From positions 32,001 through 96,000 of IMG/VR virus record IMGVR_UViG_3300005096_000058: a stretch of 64,000 nucleotides of DNA; one strand, given 5' to 3'. Origin of the DNA: a virus. The notes under the pieces are model-generated. The model was not told the origin of the DNA and ran no database searches. It saw nothing but the letters and a program-made list of their open reading frames with translations. A program made the position numbers and the translations under genes. Shown here piece by piece: positions 193 through 62,965 of this stretch; position 1 is the stretch's first letter; every line of letters begins with the position of its first letter.

Positions 193-976
193 CTAGGAGT
201 GCCCCAAACGCGGCCGGCGCAATTTTGTCCACAAACTTCTCGACGTCCGCCGCGAGTTCTGCGGCTTCGATGCCCGGGTGCTGCCACTTTGTGGGAACCG
301 CATCAGAGATCATGCGAAACGTCGTAAACGTGCTTTGGGCGGCCTTTGCGTACGTCTTTTCTTGGCGCACCATACCCGCGTAAATGTCGGTCGAATGCGC
401 AGGCTTCAGCTTCGGAGCCAAGCCAGCTTGTAGCCGGCCGCCGTAGTTGACCTTGCCTCCAGATTGTCCAGACGTGGGTTTGAGTTGCTTGGCTTTCGCG
501 TAAACAGCTTTGCCAAGCTTTGCTGCATTTTTGACGAGGGGGTGGCCCTCGTACGCGCGACCCATGGGCGGACCACCACCTTGCCCCGCAGTGCCAGGAG
601 TTTGGTGCCGGAAAGGGATCGCCCGATAGAAATGGCCATCAGCGGCTTGCCGTTTGCCTGACTGACCTGGGGAGGCGATCGGCACGTTTGGGCCCAGGAG
701 GGTCTCATGCATGTCGTACGGGCTTGCTCCGAGTTCGACCATGTTGGGGAACACCCCGACAAGTTCAATACTGGCTGTGAGCCCATCCACATCAATTTGC
801 TGGATGCCGTTGATGTAATCCCGTCTGGACGACGTCAACCGCTTACCCGCGAGCTGAATCCAATACGCGCGGGCGCCCGCCGCGATGTCTAACAGCACCG
901 TCTCCAACTGCCCCTCGTTGAATGAGGCCAACAAGGCTTCGTCAACGACGTCAGAAATGATGGTTACGTTGAGCAT
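185..976 (-). CDS. Putative neck/tail-completion virion protein
   Basis: 263-aa ORF tightly packed after the neck genes; call is positional. Confidence 0.55.
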   Translation of the reverse strand: MLNVTIISDVVDEALLASFNEGQLETVLLDIAAGARAYWIQLAGKRLTSSRRDYINGIQQIDVDGLTASIELVGVFPNMVELGASPYDMHETLLGPNVPIASPGQSGKRQAADGHFYRAIPFRHQTPGTAGQGGGPPMGRAYEGHPLVKNAAKLGKAVYAKAKQLKPTSGQSGGKVNYGGRLQAGLAPKLKPAHSTDIYAGMVRQEKTYAKAAQSTFTTFRMISDAVPTKWQHPGIEAAELAADVEKFVDKIAPAAFGALLGD

Positions 977-979
977 GAT

Positions 980-1825
980 TCAGCCGGGGTCTAGCGGGAG
1001 GTGTTCCAGACGGACCATGACCTGCTGAGGCAAGTGCACGATGTCGCCCTGCGGGGTTTTGGTTACAGCTTTCTTCTGCTTCACGAGGGTGGTGCGGTTG
1101 AGCTTTGAGTGCTCCATTACAACCCAAGCGGGACGGCAAAGATAGTGCAGCGAAATCTTGGTGCCGAGCGCAGGCTCCTGCCCCGTCGTCCAGACGATCT
1201 CCCCGCCGACAATGGTGAGGTCGGTGTCCGAGAAAACCGTGGTGAGGGTACGCACTAAATTGATGGAAAAGATGGGGTAGCGCGTTTTCAGAATTGAAGT
1301 GCCGTCAGCTTCGAGCACCTCGCTGTAAACCATGGTGTCGTCAAGAGCGATCAGCCGATCGTAATAGCCGAGCTTGTTCCCTTGGCGCACCGTGCACGAA
1401 GCAGAACCAAACGCCCACTGGCCCAGCACGGTATAGATGTCAGGTTGGCTCAAGGCGTTGACCATCAGCGTCTTGATCACCACCGCATTGGCCTTGTCGA
1501 TGATCGCGCACTGCGCGTCGTCGAGGGTACCAATGAGCGCGCTGTCTGCGGTGTATTCGTGTGGCTTGAAGTACAACCAGCCGAGGCCGTTGCAAAGGGT
1601 GCATTGCGGATCGGGTTGTCTGGACTGCGGGTTAGGTCCGGTGCAGGGGCAGAGGGCGGCCCGAGCCCAGGCAAACCTAGGACACTTGGTTTCTATGAGC
1701 AGATCGAAAGCTGTGTCGTTGACGCTGTTTAACGTCTTGAAGTCGACACGTTGTCCCCCCTCTTTCACGTTGGAGGGCAGGCCGATCACGCCCGAGCCTA
1801 GGAAGCCACCACCGACGTCACTCAT
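980..1825 (-). CDS. Putative head-closure/neck protein
   Basis: CPC...CTLCNGLGW Cys motif and GYYDRL segment as in myovirus neck proteins; follows the adaptor gene. Confidence 0.6.
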   Translation of the reverse strand: MSDVGGGFLGSGVIGLPSNVKEGGQRVDFKTLNSVNDTAFDLLIETKCPRFAWARAALCPCTGPNPQSRQPDPQCTLCNGLGWLYFKPHEYTADSALIGTLDDAQCAIIDKANAVVIKTLMVNALSQPDIYTVLGQWAFGSASCTVRQGNKLGYYDRLIALDDTMVYSEVLEADGTSILKTRYPIFSINLVRTLTTVFSDTDLTIVGGEIVWTTGQEPALGTKISLHYLCRPAWVVMEHSKLNRTTLVKQKKAVTKTPQGDIVHLPQQVMVRLEHLPLDPG

Positions 1826-3600: not shown

Positions 3601-4416
3601 TCAGCGCAGGAACGCTGCGATCTTCGCTAGGCCTTTCGCCATCCCGCGCTCACCTTCGGCCACCATGTCATCCACGTCTTCTGCCGTCATCCCAAACTCA
3701 AGACCGCTGTGTTTGGTCTTGAGGTACACCACGCGTGCGAAAGCGGCGTCCTCGATGTGCTCCCGGTCAGCGGCGTTGATCATGTCCTCCATCGTGCCCG
3801 ACACACGCACGAGCTTGTTCTTGGGCTTGGGACGCGGATCGCCCTCGCCTGGTGAAAGGAGGCTCAACCCGATCACGGGCGTCTGTTTAGAGCTACGCAT
3901 GATCCAACCTTCATAATCCAGAAGAAAGTTTCCAGACACGCCCCCATCTTCGTAATAGTCCCCGTTGATCTGCACCATGTCGAAAATGGGAAGCGACATG
4001 GATGCGCGAACATGCAGCGGTAGGTCCCCTGAAATCCAGACGCGGTTTTCACCTCGGGTCCAATTGTGTGTGCTGATGTGCAGAGGAAGGGACGCGTCCT
4101 GGTAGCTCTTGGGTAAATTGTCCCGGGCGAATTTGAGCAACAAATCACCCTTGATCACCCCTGAGGTGCCATCAACAAACGGCCAGAATGGGAAGGCCCG
4201 TGGGTCGAGCATTGTGCTGGGTAACGCCGTCCTAGTCAGCTCGTGCAGCCGGTCCAGCGGTTGACCACTTGCGAGCATCCCGGCCGCGATCGCGCCAGCC
4301 GAAGTGCCTAACGCCTCTTCGATCTTGAAGCCGCTCTTTGCGAGTTCCTTGAACGCACCGATATAGACGGGGTAGCGGGTACCCCCACCACGGAGGACGA
4401 TCTTGATGCTTGGCAT
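3601..4416 (-). CDS. Patatin-like phospholipase
   Basis: GGGTR oxyanion loop, GTSAG nucleophile elbow and catalytic DGG all present in order. Confidence 0.92.
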   Translation of the reverse strand: MPSIKIVLRGGGTRYPVYIGAFKELAKSGFKIEEALGTSAGAIAAGMLASGQPLDRLHELTRTALPSTMLDPRAFPFWPFVDGTSGVIKGDLLLKFARDNLPKSYQDASLPLHISTHNWTRGENRVWISGDLPLHVRASMSLPIFDMVQINGDYYEDGGVSGNFLLDYEGWIMRSSKQTPVIGLSLLSPGEGDPRPKPKNKLVRVSGTMEDMINAADREHIEDAAFARVVYLKTKHSGLEFGMTAEDVDDMVAEGERGMAKGLAKIAAFLR

Positions 4417-4653
4417 TTAGGCCGCCTGTGCGCGGATAAAGTCAACAAGTTGGCGCGCGTGAGGAAGGCTGACGCCCTCAATAGGAAAGTCGTCGTCCGG
4501 TCGTGCCTCGACCGCGTCGGCGAGCGCGATAAGATCCACCGCGTCACTCTCAGCAGCCACGTCCATACCCGCAATTGGGTTGAGGCGACGGCAGGCCGCG
4601 TTGATCAATTTCGTGAGCGTAGGATCGAAAACATTTTTCATGACGAGAAACAT
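4417..4653 (-). CDS. Hypothetical protein
   Basis: 78-aa ORF whose stop abuts the patatin ATG. Confidence 0.55.
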   Translation of the reverse strand: MFLVMKNVFDPTLTKLINAACRRLNPIAGMDVAAESDAVDLIALADAVEARPDDDFPIEGVSLPHARQLVDFIRAQAA

Positions 4654-5894
4654 CCTTGCGGCGTGGCCGCTCCGAGATCGTTCGTGCCGGCTGCCGCGAG
4701 GAGCATGGTTGTGCCTGGGTTTGCGCCAACGACGATTTCAGATCCGGCCGGCGTGACCAATGCCCAGCGCGCCGACAGAATTTCACTCATCCTCCCGCCG
4801 TCCACAAGTTCGACAAGGTTTCCCGTGACTGAACCAAGCATGCCGACCGTAGGGCTCAAGCTGTCAACGACGTGGCCCTTGGTTCGGATCATGCGCACGC
4901 CATTTGCAGAAATGCCATTCCCGCCGATACCAACTGTTGTATTTGGTCCGCAATCAAGGCCCACACCAATGTCAATATCGACTTGGTTGAAGAATCGGAT
5001 ATTGGTGTTTGGCTGAATGATGACTGTGTTGTCGAGCAACGATCGGGCGATGTTCGGATAGTTTGATCCGCCGACCAAGAAATTATTTGAAAACGAGGCA
5101 CCAAGGTGAAAGCCGAAGATGTCGCAGTCGACTGTTGTGAAAGAGCCATTTAGCGGTCCATCGTAGTAACCGCCTAACGAGCACTTTTCAAAGCGCCAAT
5201 TGCCCGTAGAATAAACACCGCCATCGAATGCAAGCCCACTAATCCTCGACGACGCGTCAACTGTTTTGATGAAGCCGAAATAATTTGGACCGCCGAGAAT
5301 GCCAGGATTCGTTTCTATCGATCCCCCTATGTAATCTGCGGGAATGCTCAATTGCGTCACATGGGCGTAGACGGCCGTAGGAACCGACACAGTCGTGCCC
5401 GCGACGAGAGTCAAAGACGGCCCGATTGAGCCCTTGCAGATAGCTGGGAACGACTGGACGGTGAACCCGAATGCGGAAAGATCGATGTCGGCCCAATGCG
5501 TCCCATCAATAAAATCAGGATGCGCACCAAAGTTTGGATCGGTGTGTTGGGCATGTCGGTCAGGCTCAACCGTGAAGGATGGCACCGCGTTAGTGACCAC
5601 TGGCGTCGATCGATCTGCGTAGACGGCGAGCACGCCTCCGACACCAGACTTGGGGTGGTGCACGGGAAGCGTGTACGGACCGGCGCCAACGCATTGAATT
5701 TCATAGAGCCCAACGTAGTTTTCAGGCACGCGGTCGACGGCTTCTTTCAGAGTCACGAGCGGCGTTGCAATGTCGCCGACTGCGGCGTCGCTGCCCGTCG
5801 CCGCATCGACGTACTGCCGTGTGGTGGTCGCGCGGTAGAGCGGGCGCAGTTGCGCCGGGTCTCTGATCGATCCGTTTGCAATTAGCATCGCCAC
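4638..5894 (-). CDS. Putative fibre/spike protein (beta-helix-like), partial paralogue of 5896..8184
   Basis: YVDAATGSD...PLVTLKEAV tailspike-like N-terminus; GTG start at 5894 with the same TAACGTGGC junction as the upstream gene. Confidence 0.6.
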   Translation of the reverse strand: MAMLIANGSIRDPAQLRPLYRATTTRQYVDAATGSDAAVGDIATPLVTLKEAVDRVPENYVGLYEIQCVGAGPYTLPVHHPKSGVGGVLAVYADRSTPVVTNAVPSFTVEPDRHAQHTDPNFGAHPDFIDGTHWADIDLSAFGFTVQSFPAICKGSIGPSLTLVAGTTVSVPTAVYAHVTQLSIPADYIGGSIETNPGILGGPNYFGFIKTVDASSRISGLAFDGGVYSTGNWRFEKCSLGGYYDGPLNGSFTTVDCDIFGFHLGASFSNNFLVGGSNYPNIARSLLDNTVIIQPNTNIRFFNQVDIDIGVGLDCGPNTTVGIGGNGISANGVRMIRTKGHVVDSLSPTVGMLGSVTGNLVELVDGGRMSEILSARWALVTPAGSEIVVGANPGTTMLLAAAGTNDLGAATPQGCFSS

Positions 5895-5895
5895 G

Positions 5896-8184
5896 TTAAG
5901 ACCCCATGAACGAGCCGGTGTCGAGGCTGAAGACGCCTGCAACCGAATCAAGGTAGGTGAGGGGGGCACCGTCCAACAAGACTTCATCGCCCGTTGCGGC
6001 CAAAGTCCCCTCGCAAGCGTCGTCGGCGTTGATCAAGCTGCTGCCGTTCTGAAGAACGAAGGCGTCGACGACGGTGCCGGTGACGGTTGCGCCCGGATCG
6101 AAGAATACGGCGATGCCTGGTAGGTAATCGAGCCCAACCGAAGGTGCCACGAAGGCTGTGGCTTGAGTTCCCAGGGTGTAGTCCGAGTTCGCCAGGTTGA
6201 TAGAGTTTTCCCCGGCGTATCTAAAACACGCACCCCCGACGACACGGAAATCCATATCACCAACAAATCCGAGCAGGCATCCGTAATCCAATGTAACGGG
6301 TACCTCACAAAAATTATTGCCTATGCGACCAGGACCGCGAACTTGTACCGTTCCCCCCGCGGCGTGAAGACCCTCGATCCGCGCCACCTCGCCAGAAATC
6401 TTGGCCGATGAAAACGTAGCGACGATCTGGTTTGCGCCTGTGGCCCCCACGTGCCCGTGAAGCAGACAATCCTCGAAACGGCCAAACCCACGATAATCAC
6501 AGGCCAAGAATGTGACCCCGACCATTCTAGCAGTGCCAACCCCAAAGTTCGCCTCGAAACCGATGATGCGGACACCTAGCCCCCAACGGTTGGTCCTGTT
6601 TCCTCCGTCCAAATACGGGGAGTTTGGGACCGGTGGACCAACAAAGTTTAGAATTATCGTCCTTGGGTACACCGACGCAGTCCCGCCAAAAAGCGCAAAG
6701 CGGTCCGCAATGCGTATAGCTGGTGAGACGCTTGGGATAATGTTGGGATAGTACGTCGTGTATGGCGCGCCAAAAGCAGAGACGTCCTCCTCAAGCCAAA
6801 AATCGCCGGCCGTTATACCCGCGTGCAGCCCGAAGTTCGGGTCTTCAAATTGCGTGGCGAAGTTTGGGTCAGCAACAAAAGCAGGAACCGCGTTGGTGAC
6901 CACGGGTGCGCTACGGTCGGCGATGATGTCAAGATGGCCGATACTGCCAAATTGTGGTTGAGGGAAGTTCGATCGATTGATTGCGAGCCCACTCGTGCGC
7001 ACCTCTATCACGTGGTGCCCGACAAACTGGTTAGGAATCGCGTTGATGGCGTCGTCAAGCTCTTGCTGCGTGGTGACGATTGTTAGCGAGGGCGACGCGG
7101 GCTCCGGTTGGGCCGCCAGTTGGTCAAGCGCCTCTTGCACGTTCACCGGGTCGGGGTCCGTCCAGGCGCCTGGCGTTGTAGGCGTAAAGCCCACGCGCGC
7201 AGCCAGCCCGCCGTAAAACACGTTGACCGTCCCAGCGAACAGCTGCGCTGGATCGTCGGGATTAAAACTGGCGCTTGATTCTTGCGGGAAAATGAGCAGC
7301 GTCCCGAGCCCTATTGCCGTTCTGTTCCCAAAGACCGCACCGCTGGCAATCAAGACAGTCCCCGAGGCACCGGCAGCGATCTCCCATAACGCTTGCAGTG
7401 CGTTAGCGAAATTCGTGCTGACGCCTTTCAGGAAAATTGTTTGGAACCCTGCGGTGACCTCAATAAACGGCGCGCCGCCCTCTGCCCGAACCAGACAATT
7501 GCTGAGGAAAAGTTCGTCAAAAACCGGCGAGGTCATCACTGGTGCTGTGGAAAGGCTTGTCAAGGTGAACTGCTGTCCGCTAACTCCGCTGATCCTTGGC
7601 TTATTGGAGATGGTGGCGCCATCAGCAAAATTAAGAGTCTGTGACTGTGGTGCGACCTCAATGTTGATCAACCCACCGTCAAAATCATAAGCACCCGCAG
7701 GGATCGTTGCAGCATTTCCCGTCAGCGATCCGTCGACAACGATGGTCCTTTTCCCTTCTACGTTTTGCACCGCCGCCCACAGCAACGTGAAATCCGCGTA
7801 GACGTTCGCCGCTGTCGCTCCTCCTGGGCGGAAGACGAAAGACTGGGGCTCAGGGCGGGAGGCGAGCTGATCAAGAGCCCCCTGCACATTCGTTGGGTCT
7901 GGGTCAACCCAATTCCCGGGCATCGTTGGTACATATGCAACGTCAACAGCAGCGGGGGTGGAGTCTTCGCTGTCAGGAGTCCAAACCGCTGGTCCGAGGC
8001 TGACCAACCGATAGCGGGTCAGCGTCTCGTCCACGAACACCTTCCCGCCGACGCGCACCACTTCGCCCTGTGTAGCAGGGGCCACCAGCCGGTCGCGATC
8101 TGTGAGCAGGGGGACGTGGATCACAAACGGGATTCCCGCTGAGGGGGATGTCCAACCAAACTCTTCGGGGACGGTGATAGCCAC
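5896..8184 (-). CDS. Putative fibre/spike protein with repeated NVQxALDQL linkers
   Basis: 762 aa, Gly/Ala/Phe/Val-rich; two DPDPxNVQxALDQLAxxPEP repeats. Confidence 0.65.
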   Translation of the reverse strand: MAITVPEEFGWTSPSAGIPFVIHVPLLTDRDRLVAPATQGEVVRVGGKVFVDETLTRYRLVSLGPAVWTPDSEDSTPAAVDVAYVPTMPGNWVDPDPTNVQGALDQLASRPEPQSFVFRPGGATAANVYADFTLLWAAVQNVEGKRTIVVDGSLTGNAATIPAGAYDFDGGLINIEVAPQSQTLNFADGATISNKPRISGVSGQQFTLTSLSTAPVMTSPVFDELFLSNCLVRAEGGAPFIEVTAGFQTIFLKGVSTNFANALQALWEIAAGASGTVLIASGAVFGNRTAIGLGTLLIFPQESSASFNPDDPAQLFAGTVNVFYGGLAARVGFTPTTPGAWTDPDPVNVQEALDQLAAQPEPASPSLTIVTTQQELDDAINAIPNQFVGHHVIEVRTSGLAINRSNFPQPQFGSIGHLDIIADRSAPVVTNAVPAFVADPNFATQFEDPNFGLHAGITAGDFWLEEDVSAFGAPYTTYYPNIIPSVSPAIRIADRFALFGGTASVYPRTIILNFVGPPVPNSPYLDGGNRTNRWGLGVRIIGFEANFGVGTARMVGVTFLACDYRGFGRFEDCLLHGHVGATGANQIVATFSSAKISGEVARIEGLHAAGGTVQVRGPGRIGNNFCEVPVTLDYGCLLGFVGDMDFRVVGGACFRYAGENSINLANSDYTLGTQATAFVAPSVGLDYLPGIAVFFDPGATVTGTVVDAFVLQNGSSLINADDACEGTLAATGDEVLLDGAPLTYLDSVAGVFSLDTGSFMGS

Positions 8185-8185
8185 G

Positions 8186-9004
8186 TTAAGCCAAGCCTTG
8201 GAAGGGTACGCCGCCCGGCGCTTCCTGTAAGAGGTTCGATCGCATCACACGGCAAAGCATAGTGCCGTTGGGGATGGACATCACCAAGCCCGTCTGGACT
8301 TCGGACATGCCCCCGGGAAATCCAGACGTTCCGATGATATACTGGGTTGGGACGCGGGGACCCAACGAATCGATGAACACGTGCACGAGATAGGCCCCAC
8401 CGGGCGGATTGGTGGGGTTGATGGTGAGGCTGAACGCAGCGTTGCCTGTCAATGCTGCCGTGAGTTGGTTGCCCGCGAGGACGTTGGCTTCCGTGTAAGG
8501 GCCTGGGTTGATCGTCCAGAAGACAAAATGGCGGCTTTGAAAAACCAGCGTTCTATTTGTGGAATCAGGATCGACTCCGTCCGTGGCGTCGCCTTGGAAC
8601 ACCACCTGATCAGGTGCCATCTTCTGGAAATTGTAAGGGTGGACCACCGAAAGGAACGGGGACACCATCGGGGTGGAGGGGTTACCGTCGTTGTCGCTGA
8701 TTGAGGCTGAGGTGGGAGGGCCGTTGTTGTAGCTCATACCGATCGTCGGGCTGGCGACAATGGTGCCAATCTCCACCGGGGTTGTGGGGCCCGTGATCCC
8801 CGCGATGCTGAACACACCCGGGTCAGGGCCGCAGGCGATTGCCGGCACCACCACGTCCAGATTGGACCGGGCTTGCAGCTCCACTTCCAGCACGCCTTGT
8901 GGATCGAGCTCCACTTCTAGGTTTCCCGTGACGATGATCTGCTGCGTGATCGCCCCGGATGGGGGGCAGATGGCCGCATGAGTAGATCGCGCAAGGAGGC
9001 CCAT
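8186..9004 (-). CDS. Putative virion structural protein (Ig-like)
   Basis: 272-aa beta-rich ORF inside the structural operon. Confidence 0.5.
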   Translation of the reverse strand: MGLLARSTHAAICPPSGAITQQIIVTGNLEVELDPQGVLEVELQARSNLDVVVPAIACGPDPGVFSIAGITGPTTPVEIGTIVASPTIGMSYNNGPPTSASISDNDGNPSTPMVSPFLSVVHPYNFQKMAPDQVVFQGDATDGVDPDSTNRTLVFQSRHFVFWTINPGPYTEANVLAGNQLTAALTGNAAFSLTINPTNPPGGAYLVHVFIDSLGPRVPTQYIIGTSGFPGGMSEVQTGLVMSIPNGTMLCRVMRSNLLQEAPGGVPFQGLA

Positions 9005-9009
9005 GGGAT

Positions 9010-18090: not shown

Positions 18091-18440
18091 AGGATGTCCT
18101 GGAAGAGCTTGCCCAGATTCGTCTGGATGTCCGCTTCGTTCTCGGGCTTTGGAAAGATGGAGGGACGCCACGCGGGCGACAAGATCTTGTAGTAGCGATC
18201 CATCGTCGGCCAAAGAAGCGTCACCAAGCCACCCGCCGCAGGGAGTCGCACAATGCCCTCCTCTTCGTCGTCGAGGAAGTCAGGATGCTCGTCGAGGATA
18301 GGTAGCGTGACCGCCCCGTTACCTGGGATGTTCCTCAGATAGATGTCGCCCTGAGAGAAAAAAGGACGGACGACGTCAGTTAAGCGTCGATGAGGATTTG
18401 GGCGGCCGTCGAGGGCTAAATAGAAATGGTCGTATTTCAT
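18087..18440 (-). CDS. Hypothetical protein, candidate immunity partner or chaperone of the giant protein
   Basis: ATGA overlap with the stop of the 2226-aa ORF. Confidence 0.6.
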   Translation of the reverse strand: MKYDHFYLALDGRPNPHRRLTDVVRPFFSQGDIYLRNIPGNGAVTLPILDEHPDFLDDEEEGIVRLPAAGGLVTLLWPTMDRYYKILSPAWRPSIFPKPENEADIQTNLGKLFQDIL

Positions 18441-21400
18441 GGGGCAGGCACCTTCAAGCCTTTGCAGGCCTTGTTGATGGAGGCGTTATTCTGCGTTGGG
18501 CTGGTGAAGAAGAAATCAGCGACGGGGATGTTGTTGATCTCAGTCTTCCCCGCTGACGTCAGCGTCTCAATCAATCCAGATCTGACTTGGTCGGAAGCAC
18601 ACCACACACCTGCAATGTCCTCGTGTGCGACACCATGCTCAAACAAGACTTCATGGCTACTAGAATTCAAATTGAGTGTGTCAGGTTTTGACTTAGCCGG
18701 TGCTTGCGATCCGTAACCGTCGTGGTTGTGGGCCCAATAATCAGCCCGCTTCAGAATGCGAGGTCGATAGATATAGCGCACGGTAGAACCCGTATTGTAG
18801 CCATGCACACCGCTCGCCTGAGGACCACCTTTGCGTGCGATCCTCGTGAACACGCCTGCTGCGCCACCGGTATTCACGTCGGAGCCCGCCTGTGACGAGT
18901 AGGGTGCGGTGCCGGTTGTGTACCCCTGCTTCCGAGAGGGGACGCCAGTTTCTTGGAGCAGAAAGGCTGTGGCCGCACCGGGTGAATCGGCACCCGTGTG
19001 CACAAATTGCACGTCTTTGAGATCAGCATCGGTGATTTGATCAAATTCAACGGTGTGGGCGCCGCCCGCGCCCACCTTGATGCGGGCTGTGTCGACGTAC
19101 TTGTCGAATCCAGATTTCTTGAGTTGGGAGTCGAGCCAAACTTCGTTGTCGTAGTTTTTCCGAGAAGCGCCCCAGTAACCCTTAGCCCCTAACGAGTTTC
19201 GCACAAGCTGCGATTTGATGAATAGCCGCTCAGCTTGTCCATCATGCGCGCTGGCAGCTAGCGCGGGCGCGATTCCCGCCAGCTGCAAGCCTTGTTGAAG
19301 TTCCGTTTGCACATCTTTTGACGCGGGGATACGCGCAACGAAGCGGTTCCGCATCGCCAACCCCCCATGGGCTTCAGGGGCTAGATCGCCGTTGTGCGCC
19401 ACGCCTACGTAGGACCCCCCGTCCGTGAGCCCATCAAAACCAAACCAGCCCCCCTCAATGACGTTGTCTCCTTTTTTGTGGAGCCCAGTGTCCTCGTCAT
19501 ATACGTCGTACACCGCCCCACCAGCTTCATCCGTGGTGGAGGTGTATTTGATCTTCCCTTTAGAAAGCTTGGATTTCTGCGGGTTGAAATTAAGCAGGTC
19601 GCCCGTGACCTCAAAGAAATCCTCGCCGTCTGGATTCGCAACACGGCGGACGCTGATCTGGCTGTTGATCCAGAGTCCCGCGCCGCCATGCCTAATCGTG
19701 TGACCCCAATGCCCCATCTTGATCGCATCGAGAGCACCGAGGTCAGCCTCGTTGTTGATGGCAAGCTCGCCTTGCTTCTGCGGCCCAAGAGCAAACGGGG
19801 GGGCCGACTGCGCAAAAGCAGGAGGCAGATCGGGAAGCTTGGGCGTAGTCACCGTCGTGGTTTCCACCGCGACGTCAAGGTCCGCTTTTGTCACGGTGAA
19901 CACCGTGTTGGTGGCCACCATGGGCTCGCCGTGAACAGTGATGCTCTTGTCTGCAAGATATTGTTTGGCGGCTGCTTGCGCCTCGTTGGTAATCCCGCCG
20001 AATTTGATGACAATTTTATCACTGTCCGTGTCGTGCGGCTTGATCTTTTTAGGCTTCCCGAGGCCCTCTTCCGAAAACCCAGACACGAAATCAGCGACCA
20101 CCTCATGTTTGACTGTTTTGGTGGTCACTTCCGTCTGCTCAAACGTGGTGCCCGCAGGGTAGTCAACGTTGTCTGGACCCTTGATCGTTTGCGTGCCTGG
20201 GAAGCGGTTGGCGAGTTCGTCCTTGCTCACGCCGAGCATGTCCCCAAGAGGAGAGGTTACGTCCGTCGACGGGGGCATACTTTGCCAGTTGGCCACCGCC
20301 TCTTTGAACTTCGCTGAATCCTTGCCGGCAATCAGGAAGTTACCTTCCCCATCGTCGTGCACGTGCAGCCCACCCTCGTAGCCCAGGCCAGCTAGCTTCT
20401 CCTGCAAGAAGGACAGGGTGAGGAGGTCCGAAGCCTTGTTGGATTGGGGGTGGGACTTCACCCAAGCTGCCCACGCCTTGGCCTTCTTCACTTTTTCAGA
20501 GTCAACACTTGGTTTTTTTACCGTCGGCGCGAGAGGTTTAGGTTTCTTCTTCTTTTTGACCGGGTCACCAGGCCACTGCACAGAAGCACCACCGGCCTCC
20601 TGAATCATCGAGGCCGCTTTTTTGGCGGTGAACCCCTCGCTGAGGGTGACGCCCTGTTTGTTCGTGACGCTGAACATGGGGTTCAACGCATTGGCTCCTG
20701 GACCGAGTGAGCTAAGCGTTTCCCCCCACTTGGTGTGTAGCTTCACGCCTGCCGGGAGGGCGTAAATCTTATCTATGACCGTCGTCAGTTTCAAATTGGA
20801 AGGAAGTGACTTCAGTTTCTTCTTGCCAGCGTCTGGACCCGGGGAATCGAGGTCGGCATGGTCTACATACGGAGGCTGTGCAGCCGACTCAGCCACTGTG
20901 GTTTCGGCGGCGTACAGTTTGGAGGAAACGTCGGCGTCTGTGGGTACGTCGGCCCACGCACCGCTGCTAGGCCCGGGCCCAAAGAATTCGACTTCCCAAT
21001 CGAGCGCGTGGTCAGCTAGAAACGACGCTAGGGCCTCTGTAGGGGCCGCGCTCAAACCTTGTTTCGCATAACAATACAGTGAGTCATCTTCTAAATTAAA
21101 TTCAGCCGCATATTTCTCTTGCACAGACGCGAGCGCGACGTACTCGGCTAGCGGTAGTTTGTCGACGACGACTTTGTTCTTCTGCTCCGGTGGGATGTCC
21201 TGCGGGTGAACGCCGATCGCTTCACCTGCGGTGGGCAAAGCCTTGTACGTAGCAAACGAAACGTCTTGAGGGAAAGACGCATCAACGAGTTTGAATGCCG
21301 CCTTCACCTCGGCAATTGTCAGATTATAGATACCCATGAGATCTGCGAGCGCGTAATCCAATGCGAGAGCGGACGACGACGACTCAGCCCCATGGACAAT

Positions 21401-24400
21401 CTTTCCATCCTCGTCGATCGCCACAAACTTCAGTGTCGGCGAAGCGTCTCCGTCCTCGCCGTACCCGGTCGCCGATGGGGTGATCCAGATCTTCTCACCG
21501 TGCAGCACCCCTTCGAGCCAAACACCCATCGGAGGCACCCACGACGCCCAATGCGGGGATTTCATCCCGAAAGTCTTGTTGGGCTTGCCCGGGACAGGTA
21601 ATCCAGACAGCTTGGTGGCATTGCTCCAGACAACATCTTTGTCGGGGAAATCTGGCAGCGCTTCCTTTGTCGTGACCACGGTGGGTCCGATGTCCCCTGT
21701 GATGCTCGGGGTGGCTGGCTCCGGGTCAAGGTTGGGCGGACCTCCTGCGAGGAGCAGCTCCAAGGTGGTTGGATCTTTGGCCTCGACGGGTTGGCCGCCC
21801 TTGAGGTCGACGGACCACTCAACCGACTCAGAAGAGAGCCATTCCGCCGTGTAAACCATGTCCAGCTTGGGGTTCAGCCACTTACCTTGCGGGAAGTCTT
21901 TGTGGCTTATTTTCGTGAAGGTGTCTATTCCGTCGTTGATCTCAGCGTCAACGGGGAGCGCGTCTAGCTCAGCCACCGTGAGGGGCTTGGTCCCCGACGT
22001 GTCTGGAGATCCGGGCTGGTCCTCGATACTCAGCGCATGTTCGATCATGTCGCTGACTGTGTAGCTGGCACCGCTGATGGTCTGGAAAGCTCCAGACAGC
22101 TGCTTCTTGTATTGGTAGCCCGCCACGTCCTTCAGCACCGTGCCAAAAACCAAAGCTTTAAGCTGTGCTGCGGTGGGCACCTTCGATCCCTGCCACGCGA
22201 GAGAACTCGGGGGTGGTGGCGGCTCACCGATTGAATTCACCTTCAGACCACCAAAGCCCGAAGCGGCGTCCTCAGCAACGTCCGCACTCAACTCTGTGGC
22301 AGTGAGTGCTGTAGTCATCGACCCACCCATAGGCTTCCACCCGTCAGGGTGTTTGACCCAGCCCTCACCCTCAGGGTCAGAGTTGGGGAAGGGCTTAGCG
22401 ACCGGGTCGCCATAACCCAGCACAGAGCCTATGGGGAGCTCGTCGAGCTCATCCGCGGTGGGACTCTTCCAACCATCCCAGCCAGGTTCTCCGGGTGGCT
22501 GTAGGGCTGCTTCCGCCGTGGTCGCGATGACGTTGGCGAACTCCATGAACTCGCCCGTCTTGGGCTTCACACCGAAGAACTTCCAGCCGCCTCCTGAAGC
22601 GATCTTCGTTTTGCCCGTCTTGGCTTTGTAATCGGCTTTGCCGAGATAGCCCTTCTGGACGAGCCAAACGTGATCACTGGCCGCGCTCAGGCTTTTGTGT
22701 TTGGTGACGTCGTCGCCCTTTGGGGCCTTGATCGTGACCTCAAATCCCTCCTCCAAAACTTCCAGCTGCACCTTGAGTTCCCCGAGGTGATCAAAAGGCT
22801 TGGTGAGCTCGTGCTTATGACCAATAGGGAGGGGACCACCCTTCTTCGGGTATTTCACCTCTTTGGGCGTCTGGACTTTCTTAGCTGCGGGGGTCACTTC
22901 AGCTTGAGGCGCTGGACCTGCCGGGAGCGGCTTTGGCTTTGGTTGCTTGGCGGTTTGCGTCGCCTTGGCGGCAGCAACTACCGACGGGAGAGCGAGGACG
23001 GACTTCAAACTTTGGGATGCAGGGTGCGTTGACCCGAAGACCACGGGGACACCAGTTGAGGGCACTGTGACGTTTTTGAGCAGCGGGGCACCGCCTTCGG
23101 CGGCCTGATGGACGACCCAGATGTCGAACGTTCCATCCGCGCTGAGAATTTTGATGACGCTGCCAGGCAGAGGGAGCGTTTTTGGCCAATCATGCGGGAC
23201 GGATATTGCAGCATGCTCCATCGCGAACGTCAGGGCCGCTGGGGGAATGAGCGTGGAGTCGGTGACGATCCCATCTTCAACCGCGGCCAGCATCTCGTGC
23301 AGCGTGATCTCTTTCTTCTCGGGGGCTAGGCCCAGCTCAGCCATGAGTTCGTCAGCGCTCATGCTCCCGATCGTTGGCTCCGATGTGGTGCCTGCGGCCT
23401 GGAACTCCCCTTCAAATTGCTTCAGCGCGAAAAGCTTGGTGGCCGGGTAGGCGATGCCTTTGGCTTTCTTTTCCGTCGAACCCATGTCTAGAGGCAAACC
23501 CTTGTTGAACAGCTGCGTGCTGTCCGCAGCCGCTGCGGGGGAGGGGTAGATCTTTGTGGTCCCGTTGGGGAAAAGCACTGCGATCGCAGGCTTCCCATCG
23601 ACGGAATCAAAGCCAAACTCAAAAACGTTGCCCGCCATCTTAACCGCGGCCTGGTATCCGGGGCCGGGGTATTTGGTGGGCCAGCCGGGGGGATGCTCAC
23701 CACCAGGGGCGTGCACAGTCACGTTCCCCTTGGTGACGGGCCAGCCGGGTGTCTGGACGAAGTCGACGATCTTCTCGGTCTTATCCTCGACGGGGGTGAT
23801 CGCAGGCTCATCTGCGGCTGACGGGATCGTGACTTTGTCCCCCGTCATCTCAGAGAGGAATGTCTCCCAGTTGCTGCGGAGATCTTTGAACCGCTTCTCA
23901 ATCAGCGCCCATTTTTTCTTCGGCTCAAAGTCTTCCAGACCCTGCGCGGCGTCTTCCAGATAGGGGGCCACGATGCTGTGGTACTGCTCCACGGACAGGT
24001 TCTTCTCGATACTGAGCAACACCTCCGTGACAGCTTTGATGGGGTCGCCTTTGATTTCCCCGTTTTGGAAGAGCTTCCACATTGCATTGTACGCGGGAGA
24101 ACTCGCGTTCAATTTATAGCTGGTGCTGAGCTTGTCTGCGCCGATCGCTTTGAACGCTTGGCCTTTATCAATAGCGGCGAGGTCACCACCGAGCGTCTCG
24201 ACGAAGTTGGCCCCGTGGCTATCGTGGTTGGACATCATCCAATCCAGCACTTGGTGCTGCACTAGCCGCTCAAAATGTTTTTGAAGCTTGGCTTTAGTGG
24301 TCCCGTGATCACCACTGACCTCGTTGCCGATGGTACCTTTATTGTCGACCCACGACAGGAGCACCCCTTGGTCGCCAGCGTGCTCAATCATCTCCGCGTC

Positions 24401-25117
24401 TGGATATAGACCCTCCTTGGGGAAGACGAGAGAAGCCACTCGGTTGAACGCCTCTTCAGCACGGCTCACCCAAGTTTGACCTCCGTTGGTTTTCCAGGCG
24501 TACTGGTTCCCATTTTTGTCCTCGACGATCTTACCGCCGTGGCTGCCCCCCAGGTTTCCCTTGAGTTTGAGCGTCGCAAGCAAGCTGTCTGGAAACGGAG
24601 GATCAGCGTCAGCCCCCGAGGCCCCTTTGGCCGACCACGCGGTGATCTCGTGCGGAGGGGGCACCAACGGTTCCCCAACGTGCTGCCAAAGTTCAGACGC
24701 TTTGAACTTGACCAAGCCGCCGATGCCAGCGGACTTGAGCCCGGGGAAAGAAGCCAGCAACAGCTGGGCGTCGCTGGCGCTGACGACGAAGATGCCTGCA
24801 AAACCCCCACCTTTCGATTGGATGCCCACGTCCTCTAACCACTCCCAAATTTGAGAGGCATGATCGGAGTCTTTTGGGTGGAGAGGTGGCGCGCCCTTGG
24901 TGGCCTTGGCCGCGTCTTTTTTGGCTTTGAGCTTCTTGGCGGCAGAGGACCCACCGTAGACCGGTTTGCCGTGCACCCAACCGACGATCTTGCCCCCTTT
25001 GGGGCCGATCGCCAGCACGACCATGCCGTTCGCAAACCCGAGCTTGGGCTTGGGCGTCTTAGCTTTTACGGCCTTGGAAAGGGCCGCAGGTTGGATTGCT
25101 AGCGCCGTCTGGAACAT
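18437..25117 (-). CDS. Giant multidomain (polyvalent-type) head protein: HipA/PI3K-like kinase, repeats, putative ADP-ribosyltransferase-like C-terminus
   Basis: GGSHGG...AWK...AE...DWMMSNHDSHGAN...AIDKG kinase motifs; C-terminal VHTG...GVFTR...HEVLF. Confidence 0.7.
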   Translation of the reverse strand: MFQTALAIQPAALSKAVKAKTPKPKLGFANGMVVLAIGPKGGKIVGWVHGKPVYGGSSAAKKLKAKKDAAKATKGAPPLHPKDSDHASQIWEWLEDVGIQSKGGGFAGIFVVSASDAQLLLASFPGLKSAGIGGLVKFKASELWQHVGEPLVPPPHEITAWSAKGASGADADPPFPDSLLATLKLKGNLGGSHGGKIVEDKNGNQYAWKTNGGQTWVSRAEEAFNRVASLVFPKEGLYPDAEMIEHAGDQGVLLSWVDNKGTIGNEVSGDHGTTKAKLQKHFERLVQHQVLDWMMSNHDSHGANFVETLGGDLAAIDKGQAFKAIGADKLSTSYKLNASSPAYNAMWKLFQNGEIKGDPIKAVTEVLLSIEKNLSVEQYHSIVAPYLEDAAQGLEDFEPKKKWALIEKRFKDLRSNWETFLSEMTGDKVTIPSAADEPAITPVEDKTEKIVDFVQTPGWPVTKGNVTVHAPGGEHPPGWPTKYPGPGYQAAVKMAGNVFEFGFDSVDGKPAIAVLFPNGTTKIYPSPAAAADSTQLFNKGLPLDMGSTEKKAKGIAYPATKLFALKQFEGEFQAAGTTSEPTIGSMSADELMAELGLAPEKKEITLHEMLAAVEDGIVTDSTLIPPAALTFAMEHAAISVPHDWPKTLPLPGSVIKILSADGTFDIWVVHQAAEGGAPLLKNVTVPSTGVPVVFGSTHPASQSLKSVLALPSVVAAAKATQTAKQPKPKPLPAGPAPQAEVTPAAKKVQTPKEVKYPKKGGPLPIGHKHELTKPFDHLGELKVQLEVLEEGFEVTIKAPKGDDVTKHKSLSAASDHVWLVQKGYLGKADYKAKTGKTKIASGGGWKFFGVKPKTGEFMEFANVIATTAEAALQPPGEPGWDGWKSPTADELDELPIGSVLGYGDPVAKPFPNSDPEGEGWVKHPDGWKPMGGSMTTALTATELSADVAEDAASGFGGLKVNSIGEPPPPPSSLAWQGSKVPTAAQLKALVFGTVLKDVAGYQYKKQLSGAFQTISGASYTVSDMIEHALSIEDQPGSPDTSGTKPLTVAELDALPVDAEINDGIDTFTKISHKDFPQGKWLNPKLDMVYTAEWLSSESVEWSVDLKGGQPVEAKDPTTLELLLAGGPPNLDPEPATPSITGDIGPTVVTTKEALPDFPDKDVVWSNATKLSGLPVPGKPNKTFGMKSPHWASWVPPMGVWLEGVLHGEKIWITPSATGYGEDGDASPTLKFVAIDEDGKIVHGAESSSSALALDYALADLMGIYNLTIAEVKAAFKLVDASFPQDVSFATYKALPTAGEAIGVHPQDIPPEQKNKVVVDKLPLAEYVALASVQEKYAAEFNLEDDSLYCYAKQGLSAAPTEALASFLADHALDWEVEFFGPGPSSGAWADVPTDADVSSKLYAAETTVAESAAQPPYVDHADLDSPGPDAGKKKLKSLPSNLKLTTVIDKIYALPAGVKLHTKWGETLSSLGPGANALNPMFSVTNKQGVTLSEGFTAKKAASMIQEAGGASVQWPGDPVKKKKKPKPLAPTVKKPSVDSEKVKKAKAWAAWVKSHPQSNKASDLLTLSFLQEKLAGLGYEGGLHVHDDGEGNFLIAGKDSAKFKEAVANWQSMPPSTDVTSPLGDMLGVSKDELANRFPGTQTIKGPDNVDYPAGTTFEQTEVTTKTVKHEVVADFVSGFSEEGLGKPKKIKPHDTDSDKIVIKFGGITNEAQAAAKQYLADKSITVHGEPMVATNTVFTVTKADLDVAVETTTVTTPKLPDLPPAFAQSAPPFALGPQKQGELAINNEADLGALDAIKMGHWGHTIRHGGAGLWINSQISVRRVANPDGEDFFEVTGDLLNFNPQKSKLSKGKIKYTSTTDEAGGAVYDVYDEDTGLHKKGDNVIEGGWFGFDGLTDGGSYVGVAHNGDLAPEAHGGLAMRNRFVARIPASKDVQTELQQGLQLAGIAPALAASAHDGQAERLFIKSQLVRNSLGAKGYWGASRKNYDNEVWLDSQLKKSGFDKYVDTARIKVGAGGAHTVEFDQITDADLKDVQFVHTGADSPGAATAFLLQETGVPSRKQGYTTGTAPYSSQAGSDVNTGGAAGVFTRIARKGGPQASGVHGYNTGSTVRYIYRPRILKRADYWAHNHDGYGSQAPAKSKPDTLNLNSSSHEVLFEHGVAHEDIAGVWCASDQVRSGLIETLTSAGKTEINNIPVADFFFTSPTQNNASINKACKGLKVPAP

Positions 25118-45238: not shown

Positions 45239-45612
45239 TCCCCCTCAAAAGCCTCTAGCATGTCGCCAAAGAAGGCATAGACCGGGGCGTCCATGTCCAG
45301 CTTGGCGCGGTCGTAGCCACCAAAGCGTTCGTCAATCTTCTTGAACACGTCCATTCCTGGGGGCATCGGCGCGGATTTGGTCCCTGGTTTGTTCTCCAAC
45401 AAGGTTTTGGGGCCATACCGGTAGTAAACGCCGCCCCGAGGCTGCGGGTGTGCCCAGCGGGCTATCAAGCCCAGCAGGAGCAGCGCGCGCAAATGTCCTG
45501 AGGTGGTTTTGGGTGTCAGGCCGGTCAAGGTTGCGATCTCGCTGCTGGTCGCGGGCTGGTCAAAGGCCAGCGTGATGTTCAGGGTGGTGCGTAGTCCAGG
45601 TGTAAGTTTCAT
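45235..45612 (-). CDS. Winged-helix DNA-binding protein
   Basis: TSSEIATLTGLTPKTTSGHLRAL...GLI HTH pattern. Confidence 0.7.
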   Translation of the reverse strand: MKLTPGLRTTLNITLAFDQPATSSEIATLTGLTPKTTSGHLRALLLLGLIARWAHPQPRGGVYYRYGPKTLLENKPGTKSAPMPPGMDVFKKIDERFGGYDRAKLDMDAPVYAFFGDMLEAFEGE

Positions 45613-60007: not shown

Positions 60008-60445
60008 TCAGCCTCCCATCACCCCGAGCTCGTCGTCGGTGGGCTCGGGTGTGAGTTTTTGTTGTTTGGTGACGACGCGGATTTCCGCACCCGCAAGCAC
60101 GTGACGGGACCGGGCCACGGCGGCGATTTGTTTCTCTTCGGTGTCGATGTCGATGTCGCGCAACGACGTGTTGGCTCCGAGGCGACTGAGCACCTCAGCA
60201 ATGTACGCGGCTGCTGCTGTTTTTCCAGCCTTCGCGGGGCCCTCGACGGTGATGGTGATCATGAGATCCCTCCTCTGGTGTTTCTTGTTGAATTTTGCCG
60301 CCGCAGCTTCAGCTACGACTGGACACATGATGTCGTGTTGACCCACGACGAGGTGCCCATGGTCGGGACTTTTGCAGGCGTCGCATGGCGGGTCCATCTG
60401 GGGCCAGGTGTCGATGTGGATAACGTTCATGTCATCCTGGGTCAT
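60008..60445 (-). CDS. Small protein with a P-loop motif
   Basis: ITVEGPAKAGKT. Confidence 0.5.
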   Translation of the reverse strand: MTQDDMNVIHIDTWPQMDPPCDACKSPDHGHLVVGQHDIMCPVVAEAAAAKFNKKHQRRDLMITITVEGPAKAGKTAAAAYIAEVLSRLGANTSLRDIDIDTEEKQIAAVARSRHVLAGAEIRVVTKQQKLTPEPTDDELGVMGG

Positions 60446-60986
60446 ATTCATCCCCGTGCCCGTCCCAGCCTTCTGGAATCTTGCCGCGGGCGAAAAGTTC
60501 AATGCGCGGGCGATCGCCAAGTAGCTCGACGATGCGATCGCGCACTTCGGGGGGCTTAGTCGAATGCTTCCCAGGCAATGGCTTCGGAGCAAAAACCGTC
60601 TGGACAATCTTCTCGCTCAACAGCGGAAAAACGCGCTTGTCCTTCGTCGAGTAAACAAGGCAGAATTCAGTGAGAGGCTTAACCGTGCGCGGACGGACAC
60701 CACTGGCCTTGAGCGGAGTACCGTCCAGCTTGGTCTTCACCCAAACGAAGGCCACGCCTTGGTAGATCAAGCCTTGTTTCTTCCAGCGTTCGCCGCAGCG
60801 AAGAGCCAGGTCCAACTTCGGGCAGGTCACCCATGAGAAGACGATCGCATCTTTCGCGAGGAAGAGGGACCAATCGAAGTTGGAGATCTCCTCCTCAGTC
60901 ATTTGCTTGTACGTGAGCTTGGCCGTGCCGAATTTTGTGTACGTCCATGGGAAATCAGTGAGGACAATTTCGTAACGCTTGGTCAT
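60432..60986 (-). CDS. MT-A70-family (adenine) methyltransferase
   Basis: TDFPW (DPPW-like), FVWVK, TEFCL, HSTKP, RIELFAR. Confidence 0.85.
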   Translation of the reverse strand: MTKRYEIVLTDFPWTYTKFGTAKLTYKQMTEEEISNFDWSLFLAKDAIVFSWVTCPKLDLALRCGERWKKQGLIYQGVAFVWVKTKLDGTPLKASGVRPRTVKPLTEFCLVYSTKDKRVFPLLSEKIVQTVFAPKPLPGKHSTKPPEVRDRIVELLGDRPRIELFARGKIPEGWDGHGDEYDPG

Positions 60987-62623
60987 TCTGTTCCCCAGTC
61001 GTACTTGTCTAGCTGCATCATCTGCTCGTGCGTGACAAGGGAAAGTTGATTTGCGCTGAGGTAATTGTGGAGGGCAGCCTCAAAGGCGGTTTGGAACGCG
61101 GGGCCTTCGGGCTGCAACGTTGCCACATCCAGCCCCACGTTGGTGGGAAGCACGATTGTATGTGTCTGGACGTTCTGCCCGAGCATCCACTCGTCAATGT
61201 CCTTGGCAAGAAGGCCCAACCCTTTGACGTGTGTGCCAGAGAAGCTGGGTCCGTAACGAAGGTGGATAAGGAAAGTGCTGGGTCCGGCAGCGTGGACGAC
61301 TGGTGGGTGCGCTTGGATCTCCTCCATCTTGGGTCCAGGAGGGATCAGATTTGTGAGTGCTGTTTTTAAGTCTTGTTCAAACTGCGCCAGAGCCTTGTCG
61401 GTGATGGTGTGGTGGTGGTCCTCAATGGTGATATTGCTGCTCTGGCTCGGCCCCACAAACCCACCAGTCGGTCCCCAGGGGACTGGTGAGTAGGGGATCG
61501 GCTTTGCTGGGGTAGCCGCTACTTGCTTGGACCAAGCCAAAGCCTTGTCGTTAAGACTCTGGCGGGCGCCGGTAACGACGTTGTCGCTCGGGATCGGTTC
61601 CTTAGGCACCTGCTGCACGTTGTGGGTGACACAATCATCCCAAGTGAAGGTCAGATCCGGTAACAGCATGCTGACCGCCATCATAAATTGCTCTAGCTGC
61701 GCCTCTGCTCCCCACGTCGCAGCCTTTGTGGTGGTGACGTGGCACGCCAATTTGAAATCTTGGTCGAATTTCGTTTCGACAGACACCACCTCGAACGCAA
61801 GGCCGGCCCCAGCATCGTCCAGCCACTCGTGCAATTGCCCCGATGACGGGGTACTACTTTTTCCCCATGGGGGAGGAAGCAGCGATTTGGCGTACGTGTC
61901 GTCCCAGACGCAAACCACTTCTCCAACCCACGGGGATGCGTGGCTTAACACGTCGTGGATGCAGTTTTGTATGCTGGTCAGATCCACGTGAAGGTTTGGG
62001 TTCGCAAACGTGATCAATAAAGTCTTCTTGTTCTTGGGGAAGCCAAGAGAGGCTACCGATAAGACAAACAGACCGATCGATTTGGCGAGATCTTTGACCC
62101 ACTTCCTGACTCCGCTGATGGTCGCAAAGTCCCAGGCTGCCGATGGTGCTGTGGGCGGCCAGACGGACGCCGTTGGGTGCCATGCCTGCCCATACTTCTG
62201 CTGCATAATTGCCAGGGGCGTGGCTAGCGGGAACTCCTTCGGTGATTCATCAATGATGGCGGTGGTCAGCGAGGGCCCTTTGATCGGGTCTTCGTTGGCC
62301 CTATCCTCTGCCAATTTCTTAGCGAGTTTGGTATCGGCGAGAGCGTACTCGGCAGCTGTGTAGACGGACCCAGCGTCGGCGACGACTTTCAACTCTTGGT
62401 GGGAGACTGTAAGTTGTTGAGCCGTCCAGACAGGCCCTGACGGCATGATCTTCCCGTTGAAATACGCTGATTTGAAACCCGGATCTTGCTCGTGCTTCTT
62501 CTTCAGCGCAAGCATCTGTTCATCATCCAGAAGGAGGATGCCTGGGCCTGTCCCCGCGTAATTTAGCCGGTCGATCGTCACGTCCAGAGCAGGGTTGAAC
62601 AGGCTGATGGGTTTTCCAGACAC
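60983..62623 (-). CDS. Hypothetical protein (546 aa)
   Basis: Long coupled ORF; no domain recognised. Confidence 0.6.
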   Translation of the reverse strand: MSGKPISLFNPALDVTIDRLNYAGTGPGILLLDDEQMLALKKKHEQDPGFKSAYFNGKIMPSGPVWTAQQLTVSHQELKVVADAGSVYTAAEYALADTKLAKKLAEDRANEDPIKGPSLTTAIIDESPKEFPLATPLAIMQQKYGQAWHPTASVWPPTAPSAAWDFATISGVRKWVKDLAKSIGLFVLSVASLGFPKNKKTLLITFANPNLHVDLTSIQNCIHDVLSHASPWVGEVVCVWDDTYAKSLLPPPWGKSSTPSSGQLHEWLDDAGAGLAFEVVSVETKFDQDFKLACHVTTTKAATWGAEAQLEQFMMAVSMLLPDLTFTWDDCVTHNVQQVPKEPIPSDNVVTGARQSLNDKALAWSKQVAATPAKPIPYSPVPWGPTGGFVGPSQSSNITIEDHHHTITDKALAQFEQDLKTALTNLIPPGPKMEEIQAHPPVVHAAGPSTFLIHLRYGPSFSGTHVKGLGLLAKDIDEWMLGQNVQTHTIVLPTNVGLDVATLQPEGPAFQTAFEAALHNYLSANQLSLVTHEQMMQLDKYDWGTE

Positions 62624-62626
62624 GAA

Positions 62627-62965
62627 TCAGACGCCTTTCAGATGACTGAAAAGCACCGTTTCAATCTGGGCAAAACCCACGTCATCTAGGTTCAGCACCA
62701 CGGTCGTGCGCAGCTCAGCCATGATCGTGTCCGCGACGTCACCATTGATCGCCTTTTCAGCGCGCAGATCATGGGCCAGCTGCTCGTATTTGGTCGCGAG
62801 GGTGTGCATGCGCGTCTGGACGTTCTCGTGTTTGGTCCGTTCTGCATCGGCGTATGCCTTCAGTTTGTCGAAGCGCTCACCTAAGTTGGAGAGTTCCCGT
62901 TCCTCCTCCGCACGCGCTTCGTTGATGAGGTTGAACGCTATCTGGATTTTGTCGTCAGAGGGCAT
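62627..62965 (-). CDS. Coiled-coil hypothetical protein
   Basis: 112 aa, AGGAG RBS. Confidence 0.55.
   Translation of the reverse strand: MPSDDKIQIAFNLINEARAEEERELSNLGERFDKLKAYADAERTKHENVQTRMHTLATKYEQLAHDLRAEKAINGDVADTIMAELRTTVVLNLDDVGFAQIETVLFSHLKGV

Follow-up and report, generated by a model that had tools for sequence, protein, structure and literature searches.

An iterated TCCAGAC(R) word in a phage genome is one form of a clade-wide trait in which the word varies by lineage

The stretch of DNA analysed here (the window, 64,000 nucleotides) covers positions 32,001 to 96,000 of the IMG/VR virus record IMGVR_UViG_3300005096_000058, a 110,147-bp phage record that we call G000. It is covered with the short non-palindromic word TCCAGAC, mostly followed by a purine (R), and we found that an iterated word is a trait of the whole clade to which this phage belongs, with the word varying by lineage. 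The enrichment, its origin at the level of DNA, the retention of individual sites, the change from word to word within the clade and the lack of a link to the annotated methyltransferases are established directly below. We tentatively favour the reading that TCCAGAC(R) is this phage's version of the clade-wide word and the docking or target site of one putative factor inherited with the phage lineage.

Window 467..62820, 69 sites on the plus and 55 on the minus strand (exact count): dispersed TCCAGAC(R) field, 124 sites

Enrichment of the word in G000

An initial annotation of the window, made by inspection of the letters, had counted about 124 exact copies of TCCAGAC by hand. The count is exactly 124 and all the example coordinates given are correct. 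The expectation of about 8 from base composition was also sound, as dinucleotide shuffles give 8.87 ± 2.9 copies (maximum 18). The use of both orientations (binomial P=0.24) and the preference for a purine as the next base were confirmed, the latter at 115 of the 124 window sites and at 183 of 197 in the whole genome. These 197 copies are divided 103/94 between the strands, and the reversed control word occurs 11 times. The genome-wide expectation is 10.8-16, and the observed number is about 18 times the lower value, which comes from a third-order Markov model with the sites masked. Synonymous shuffling within genes gave 51.9 ± 5.5 copies (maximum 69), and shuffling of whole codons 32.2 ± 4.3. 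Among competing 7-mers, TCCAGAC reaches z=37, compared with about 8 for the best unrelated ones. Independent assemblies from other samples show the same enrichment, which answers, indirectly, that the excess is no assembly artefact.

The core of the motif is TCCAGA, with 320 sites in G000 versus about 42-58 expected (2.9 per kb). At these sites, position 7 is C in 62% of cases, with A or T tolerated and G almost never found; position 8 holds a purine, and C is rare at position -1. Among the one-letter variants, TCCAGAA and TCCAGAT alone are enriched (3.3-6.2 fold), the other 19 occurring at about 1x. No signal was seen around the sites beyond about -3 to +8, and no periodic context.

Several lines of evidence bear on the level at which the word is produced. 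All six frame and orientation classes are occupied (12-43 sites each), so the initial statement that the motif lies in coding sequence in several frames holds. Coding DNA contains 92% of the sites in G000, where 16 are intergenic or at gene edges, and intergenic density equals coding density in six genomes. Ser-Gly pairs use TCT-GGA in 47 of 205 cases (4.2 expected) and Ser-Arg pairs use TCC-AGA 18 times (1.2 expected), rare codons notwithstanding. The three Ile-Gln-Thr tripeptides reported in a MuF-like protein are real and each is encoded by ATCCAGACG; this 840-aa head protein has a Pfam match to an InPase domain only.

Window 27493..27622, minus strand: three sites 60-63 bp apart in the 840-aa protein, each ATCCAGACG (Ile-Gln-Thr)

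Because six frames are used, the TCT-GGA and TCC-AGA codon pairs are favoured and intergenic and coding densities are equal, we conclude that the drive acts on the DNA. Together with the shuffles, this upholds the initial proposal that a DNA-level process creates or keeps the site, rather than coding or base composition.

Placement along the genome is random. All genes of G000 are on the minus strand, and the order of site orientations yields 98 runs versus 99.3 expected (runs test). Spacing is Poisson-like, with a coefficient of variation (CV) of 0.9-1.1 and largest per-strand gaps of 5-6 kb, as by chance; tests for regular spacing and for avoidance of gaps gave neither. No preferred distance or pairing between neighbouring sites and no terminal clustering were found. 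Orientation skew was considered as an origin marker and rejected, being weak (P about 0.02-0.2) and having its extremes at non-homologous places in relatives. Constrained genes are poor in sites (one in the major capsid protein gene versus 4.2 expected, one in RecA and one in the primase), and genes unique to G000 carry 2.0 sites per kb, compared with 2.9-3.5 elsewhere. One-off precursor words, whose depletion would indicate a drive of the very short patch (VSP) type, are not depleted, except for the restricted TCCGGA.

A single stretch of the window is significantly devoid of the core.

Window 4042..8291, strand not applicable: sole significant TCCAGA-free stretch, 4,258 bp (0.001 gaps of this size expected)

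This island spans most of a patatin gene, small open reading frames (ORFs) and the gene for a 762-aa protein. No relative has a homologue of the small ORFs or of the 762-aa gene, and the patatin gene has a weak match (29%) in G011 only. A search for homologues of the 762-aa and patatin genes gave uncultured relatives only. The block is probably a recent acquisition.

Words across the clade

Relatives were retrieved via the terminase as 36 viral contigs, all uncultured, and ten more near-complete or large genomes were fetched. In what follows, G001-G003 and G006-G015 are genomes related to G000, and L numbers (such as L034 and L058) are loci of relatives. The clade consists of myoviruses of 100-110 kb that share core genes; G000 itself has a 91-bp terminal overlap and 58.5% GC. 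Isolated phages gave no blastn match to 7 kb of G000, and the best identity in terminase tblastn searches was at most 30%, with no cultured relative and no host found.

In most relatives the core TCCAGA or TCCGGA is present at about 2-3.5 sites per kb, and the flanks differ by lineage. The iterated words are as follows.

G001 (about 70-72% nucleotide identity to G000): TCCAGAC-R as in G000, 204 copies
G002: TTTCCAGA, 2.2 per kb
G003 (locus L011): TCCAGACT, 3.5 per kb
G007 and G013: TTCCAGAAA, with 305 and 314 TCCAGA
G009 and L058: TCCAGAAA, with 210 TCCAGA in G009
L034: TCCAGAGT
G008: the 5-mer TCCAG only, 800 versus 283 expected
G006: TCCGGA, 364 sites; full palindrome TTCCGGAA, 310 versus 11 expected
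G011: TCCGGA, 319 sites
L035: TCCGGA
L037-L039: GAGCTC
G014, L036, L046 and L048: CTCGAG
G010 and G012 (32% GC, AT-rich): none

A T precedes 67% of the TCCGGAA sites of G006, completing the palindrome TTCCGGAA, and the word TTCCAGAA of G007 and G013 is a near-palindrome. Whatever the word, the number of sites is nearly constant in six genomes (298-364, or 2.8-3.3 per kb, in G000, G001, G006, G007, G011 and G013). This constancy is an apparent set-point, and none of the explanations discussed below accounts for it. TCCGGA is near neutral in G007, G009 and G013 despite their strong excess of TCCAGA, and therefore the process that makes TCCAGA rejects G at position 4.

The terminase tree shows at least two alternations between TCCGGA and TCCAGA types among close relatives. 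The replication genes and the structural genes, each set concatenated, agree on a topology in which G006, a TCCGGA genome, is sister to G000 plus G001. The word-less G010 and G012 are nested within the clade and keep every core gene. The TCC[A/G]GA core is enriched in relatives of 50-67% GC that have differing spectra of palindrome avoidance, and the 8-mer of G000 is also that of G001, despite their different avoidance spectra.

The avoided words were recorded as well. G000, window included, has no CTCGAG, TCCGGA or ACATGT (65, 42 and 26 expected); G001 purges AATT (12 versus 259) and GATC, unlike G000; and G002, G008, G011 and G013 each lack their own set of 6-10 six-base palindromes. No TCCGGA is found in G000, G002, G008 or G015, no CTCGAG in seven genomes and no GAGCTC in nine. 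The purged palindrome sets, which differ between genomes, indicate heavy and varied host restriction pressure. In G008 (L072-L077), TCCAG is strand-biased (488 versus 312), and the non-palindromic CTCTTC (EarI/SapI-type) is absent versus 90 expected.

Sites are maintained between lineages

Site maintenance was measured in the aligned pairs G000/G001 and G007/G013, whose overall identity is about 71-72%. Between G000 and G001, TCCAGAC is identical at 49 of 103 aligned sites, compared with 12.3% for control 7-mers (P=2e-18). Between G007 and G013, TTCCAGAA is identical at 60 of 90 aligned sites, with controls at 9.1% (P=1e-40). The retention of individual sites exceeds that of control words 4-7 fold, and column identity, about 0.70 in the flanks, is 0.80-0.87 within sites. 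Synonymous sites are saturated between G000- and G006-type lineages, codon alignments giving about 50% nucleotide identity. In these alignments G006 has TCCGGA at 8 of 111 G000 TCCAGA positions (background 0.34%), from which it follows that each genome writes its own word at shared permissive places. The maintenance data largely exclude a neutral relic of decayed TCCGGA and do not separate selection from biased-repair drive.

Candidate writers and readers

The initial annotation had suggested that the word may be a methylation mark or the site of a reader protein, and had pointed to methyltransferases and to RAMA-like and ParB-like domains in head proteins. The notion that the site is made or kept at the DNA level has stood; the proposed writers and readers either do not track the word or were not detected. 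The candidate genes are as follows.

Window 44192-45238, minus strand: C5 cytosine DNA methyltransferase (Pfam)
Window 60432..60986, minus strand: ORF of the MT-A70 methyltransferase family (match at window ~60447-60974, equal to G000 92447-92974)
G000 97547-98383, just outside the window: D12 methyltransferase (Pfam)
Window 18437..25117, minus strand: 2226-aa head-module protein (no Pfam match)

The C5 family (PF00145) is found in G000 and G001 only, which speaks against it as the writer. MT-A70 (PF05063) fares no better, being present in G000 and G008 only, and G001 lacks it yet has an identical motif. Using tblastn, D12 was detected in G000-G002 only, plus a match of 20% identity in the motif-free G012, and PF01555 occurs in G014 only. 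Genomes G006, G007, G009, G011 and G013, whose words are equally strong, have no PF00145, PF01555 or PF05063 and no tblastn match to D12. PF02384 and Vsr are absent in G000, G001, G006, G007 and G011, and the TGT/DpdA families were searched for and are absent.

As for readers, no ParB_N or RAMA match was obtained in G000 or in four relatives, and the domains suggested for the head proteins are not supported. Kinase, RAMA and ART domains of the 2226-aa protein were not confirmed by profile search, and an 844-aa head protein has no Pfam match. Of the eight strong TCC[A/G]GA genomes, six have homologues of the 2226-aa protein, G006 has a 79-aa piece only and G008 has none. A 140-aa protein (G000 8927-9349) co-occurs with the six strongest genomes and has no family match; it was set aside as a candidate, its structural model (pLDDT 53) being too poor for a structure search. 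Residues convergent between the two TCCGGA phages gave no candidate either, as the excess is distributed across many proteins in two genomes that are both GC-rich.

The C5 gene belongs to a set of three translationally coupled genes (window 44192-46835), which encode a 408-aa protein, a 125-aa ArsR-like winged-helix protein and the methyltransferase. The ArsR-like protein was not detected in G001. From the gene arrangement, this trio may be a regulated modification module.

Comparison with known iterated words

The initial annotation did not recognise the motif as HIP1, a DNA uptake sequence (DUS) or a known Chi site, and our comparison agrees. HIP1 has been known since the 1990s and to our knowledge has no accepted function. 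The closest published phenomenon is HIP1 (GCGATCGC) together with the alternate highly iterated palindromes (HIPs) of cyanobacteria, for which a methylation-linked drive has been proposed in a paper that does not mention phages (Elhai 2015, PMC4390886). Like HIPs, the words described here are short and GC-rich, far above expectation genome-wide in genes and spacers, replaceable by another word in related lineages, prone to one-letter deviants at a flank, and suspected of a methyltransferase-type specificity. Unlike HIPs, they are found in phage genomes, most of which encode no recognisable cognate methyltransferase, and the word of G000 is non-palindromic, though its sisters G006 and G011 use TCCGGA or TTCCGGAA.

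The DUS of Neisseria and the uptake signal sequences (USS) of Pasteurellaceae are features of competent bacteria, measure 9-12 nt and are often arranged as inverted pairs in terminators. They share with the phage word its dispersal, asymmetry and use of both orientations, but the phage sites are mostly in coding DNA and have no preferred pairing or spacing, unlike the terminator pairs. Restriction-site avoidance in phages concerns the same class of words (CTCGAG, TCCGGA and ACATGT in G000) and has the opposite sign, purging rather than enrichment. Among the literature searched, no paper containing the TCCAGAC word or describing iterated non-palindromic words in phages was found, and nothing relevant on TCCGGA or HIPs in phages.

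A proposed reader of the word and its rivals

In the reading that we tentatively favour, the putative factor would be a sequence-specific DNA-binding or DNA-modifying protein that reads a duplex site of 6-8 bp, as restriction-modification-type proteins do. Coverage of the genome would be kept up at about 3 sites per kb, with no constraint on orientation or position, and sites lost by drift would be replaced. From lineage to lineage, the specificity of the reader would shift by small changes (TCCGGA to TCCAGA, or altered flanks), possibly as an escape from host enzymes that cut the old word. Duplex reading of the restriction-modification type is suggested by the compact sites of 6-8 bp, the full palindromes of G006, the near-palindromes of G007 and G013 and the overlap with words purged by sister phages. 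Inheritance with the phage is suggested because the core spans 50-67% GC and differing avoidance, G000 and G001 share the 8-mer, site density is similar whatever the word, and the putatively acquired island is motif-free. We infer that a single reader exists and is phage-encoded, and that the coverage serves protection, self-marking or compaction. A more specific version, possible but held with less confidence, is a heritable genome-barcode system, in which a phage-encoded reader or modifier would need about 300 sites per genome and the word would co-evolve by single-base steps whenever a host enzyme cuts the old one.

The phage-inherited reader has a close rival in a host-linked drive of the HIP type, which we regard as possible though not as our first choice. 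Here, the word would be the target of a host methyltransferase, perhaps an orphan one, and methylation-linked repair bias or selection for host-type marks would fill the replicating DNA, so that the phage word reports the host. The repertoire of words is restriction-modification-like, and from one sister phage to another it goes from total avoidance to 3-9-fold enrichment, as such a drive would have it; in strongly iterated genomes no phage methyltransferase is recognisable. In G010 and G012, both AT-rich, all core genes are kept and the word is missing, as expected after a change of host; only the flank position tolerates variants, as reported for HIP1 (PMC4390886); and the equality of coding and non-coding density also fits. 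The search for a host with the word speaks against this drive. None of 301 genomes of Cyanobacteriota, the sole phylum sampled, reaches a phage-like density of TCCAGA, and no bacterial genome with a dispersed excess of TCCAGA(C) was found in this sample or among the matches listed in triple-site scans. These scans, of genome_contigs and viral_contigs, gave, among the matches listed, tandem or local repeats and no dispersed enrichment, and Protein Atlas searches with the C5 methyltransferase and an ADP-ribosylglycohydrolase provided no clue to the host. The persistence of the TCC[A/G]GA core across very different GC contents and avoidance spectra also counts against host drive, as do the site-free 4.26-kb block specific to G000 and the lack of depletion of any one-off precursor save the restricted TCCGGA.

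Three further explanations are less probable. Primase sites are 3-5 nt long and read on single strands (5'-GTC-3' for the T7 primase), and we know of no report that they are enriched. Still, a DnaG/T7-like primase could read 5'-..CTGGA-3' in the template together with a cryptic 3' GA and prime both strands about every 0.7-1.1 kb. The primase of G000 (5492-6580) has a CPxC...CxxC zinc ribbon and a TOPRIM domain, and every variant of the word shares a core that ends in GGA on one strand. Both orientations are used, and per-strand density is near the size of Okazaki fragments, with the kilobase spacing of primase sites. The T7-like AtTwinkle uses 5'-(G/C)GGA-3' with a cryptic GA (PMC5737085). This explanation is nevertheless unlikely: G010 and G012 keep the primase (about 40% identity, similar zinc ribbon) without the word, long gaps are not avoided, the orientation skew is weak and positioned differently between genomes, and the preference of G006 for full 8-bp palindromes implies duplex rather than single-strand reading, which the evidence here favours in general. 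A Chi-like signal that the phage would have accumulated as protection against host RecBCD or AddAB nuclease is more improbable still. The word is an asymmetric one of 7-8 nt, G/T-rich on one strand (GTCTGGA), and Chi-rich phages exist that have likewise accumulated an asymmetric octamer well above chance, such as phage LLS (23 Chi, one per 1.86 kb, 20 of the 23 in the same direction; Zheng 2025, PMC12315714) and lambdoid phages (Bobay 2013, PMC3784561). The lambdoids have about 20-30 sites, oriented and near one end, and no recombination modules, whereas here there are about 200-320 at random, at a density around three times that of the Chi-richest phage cited. It is because of this random orientation, the lack of clustering at the ends, the phage's own RecA and SbcCD homologues and the perfect palindromes of sister phages that we consider a Chi-like role unlikely. 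Finally, the word might be a neutral relic of an ancestral iterated TCCGGA that decayed via CpG transitions to TCCAGA/TCTGGA once restricted or methylated. In its favour, TCCGGA is absent from G000 (0 versus 36-42 expected), the 320 TCCAGA sites of G000 match the TCCGGA counts of G006 and G011 (364 and 319), the two orientations are roughly equal in number and the positions of the two word types overlap. This reading is largely refuted, and we give it the smallest chance of all: sites are maintained several times better than controls, flanks are asymmetric (C at +7 in 62% versus G at -1 in 34%), G007, G009 and G013 combine normal TCCGGA levels with a strong TCCAGA excess, and synonymous sites between lineages are saturated.

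Returning to the phage-inherited reader, several observations weigh against it. The iterated words TCCGGA, CTCGAG and GAGCTC are the same ones that sister phages purge, and this ties them to host restriction-modification specificities. Independent re-occupation of the same permissive codons could be the source of site conservation. As G010 and G012 keep all core genes without a word, no core gene is sufficient for it. No methyltransferase, Vsr, ParB, RAMA or TGT family searched for tracks the word, and the conserved uncharacterised proteins, which are without Pfam or PHROG function, yielded no candidate gene.

Other features

A different kind of repeat accounts for a threefold excess of the heptamer in two bacterial genomes, G016 (Actinomycetota metagenome-assembled genome JAYRXR01, L141:5395-5550) and G020, where the enrichment is not dispersed. 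Both contain a many-copy element made of inverted arrays of a 7-bp tandem unit with GTCTGGA/TCCAGAC, flanking a spacer of about 90-100 bp, which is probably a REP-like (repetitive extragenic palindromic) or MITE-like (miniature inverted-repeat transposable element) repeat.

The replication and repair genes of G000 comprise PolA, a DnaG-type primase with zinc ribbon, a DnaB-like helicase, a clamp, RecA, a Rad50/SbcC-like and an Mre11/SbcD-like protein. In G011 (L091), the stop-to-stop frame of the primase runs upstream into the DnaB-like helicase region, which suggests, from the reading frame, a helicase-primase fusion in place of the two separate genes of G000. The large terminase and portal genes (window 35941-39144 and 29205-32246) are each split by an intein with a LAGLIDADG homing-endonuclease domain, and the insert in the terminase of G001 is about 1.2 kb shorter than that of G000. 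A search for tRNA genes in the phage found none.

Implications

Why short words are iterated has long been a puzzle. Were the reader encoded by the phage, it would represent a novel type of genome-wide self-marking or protection system. If the word is host-driven, it would be a sequence-only predictor of the host for uncultured phages, and would support the methylation-repair model for HIPs and extend that model to asymmetric sites. The clade is a compact natural experiment, with small complete genomes of about 110 kb that share core genes and differ in their words. Its word states include a palindrome, the one-base non-palindromic neighbour of that palindrome, other palindromes and none, which makes the cause of the iteration directly testable.

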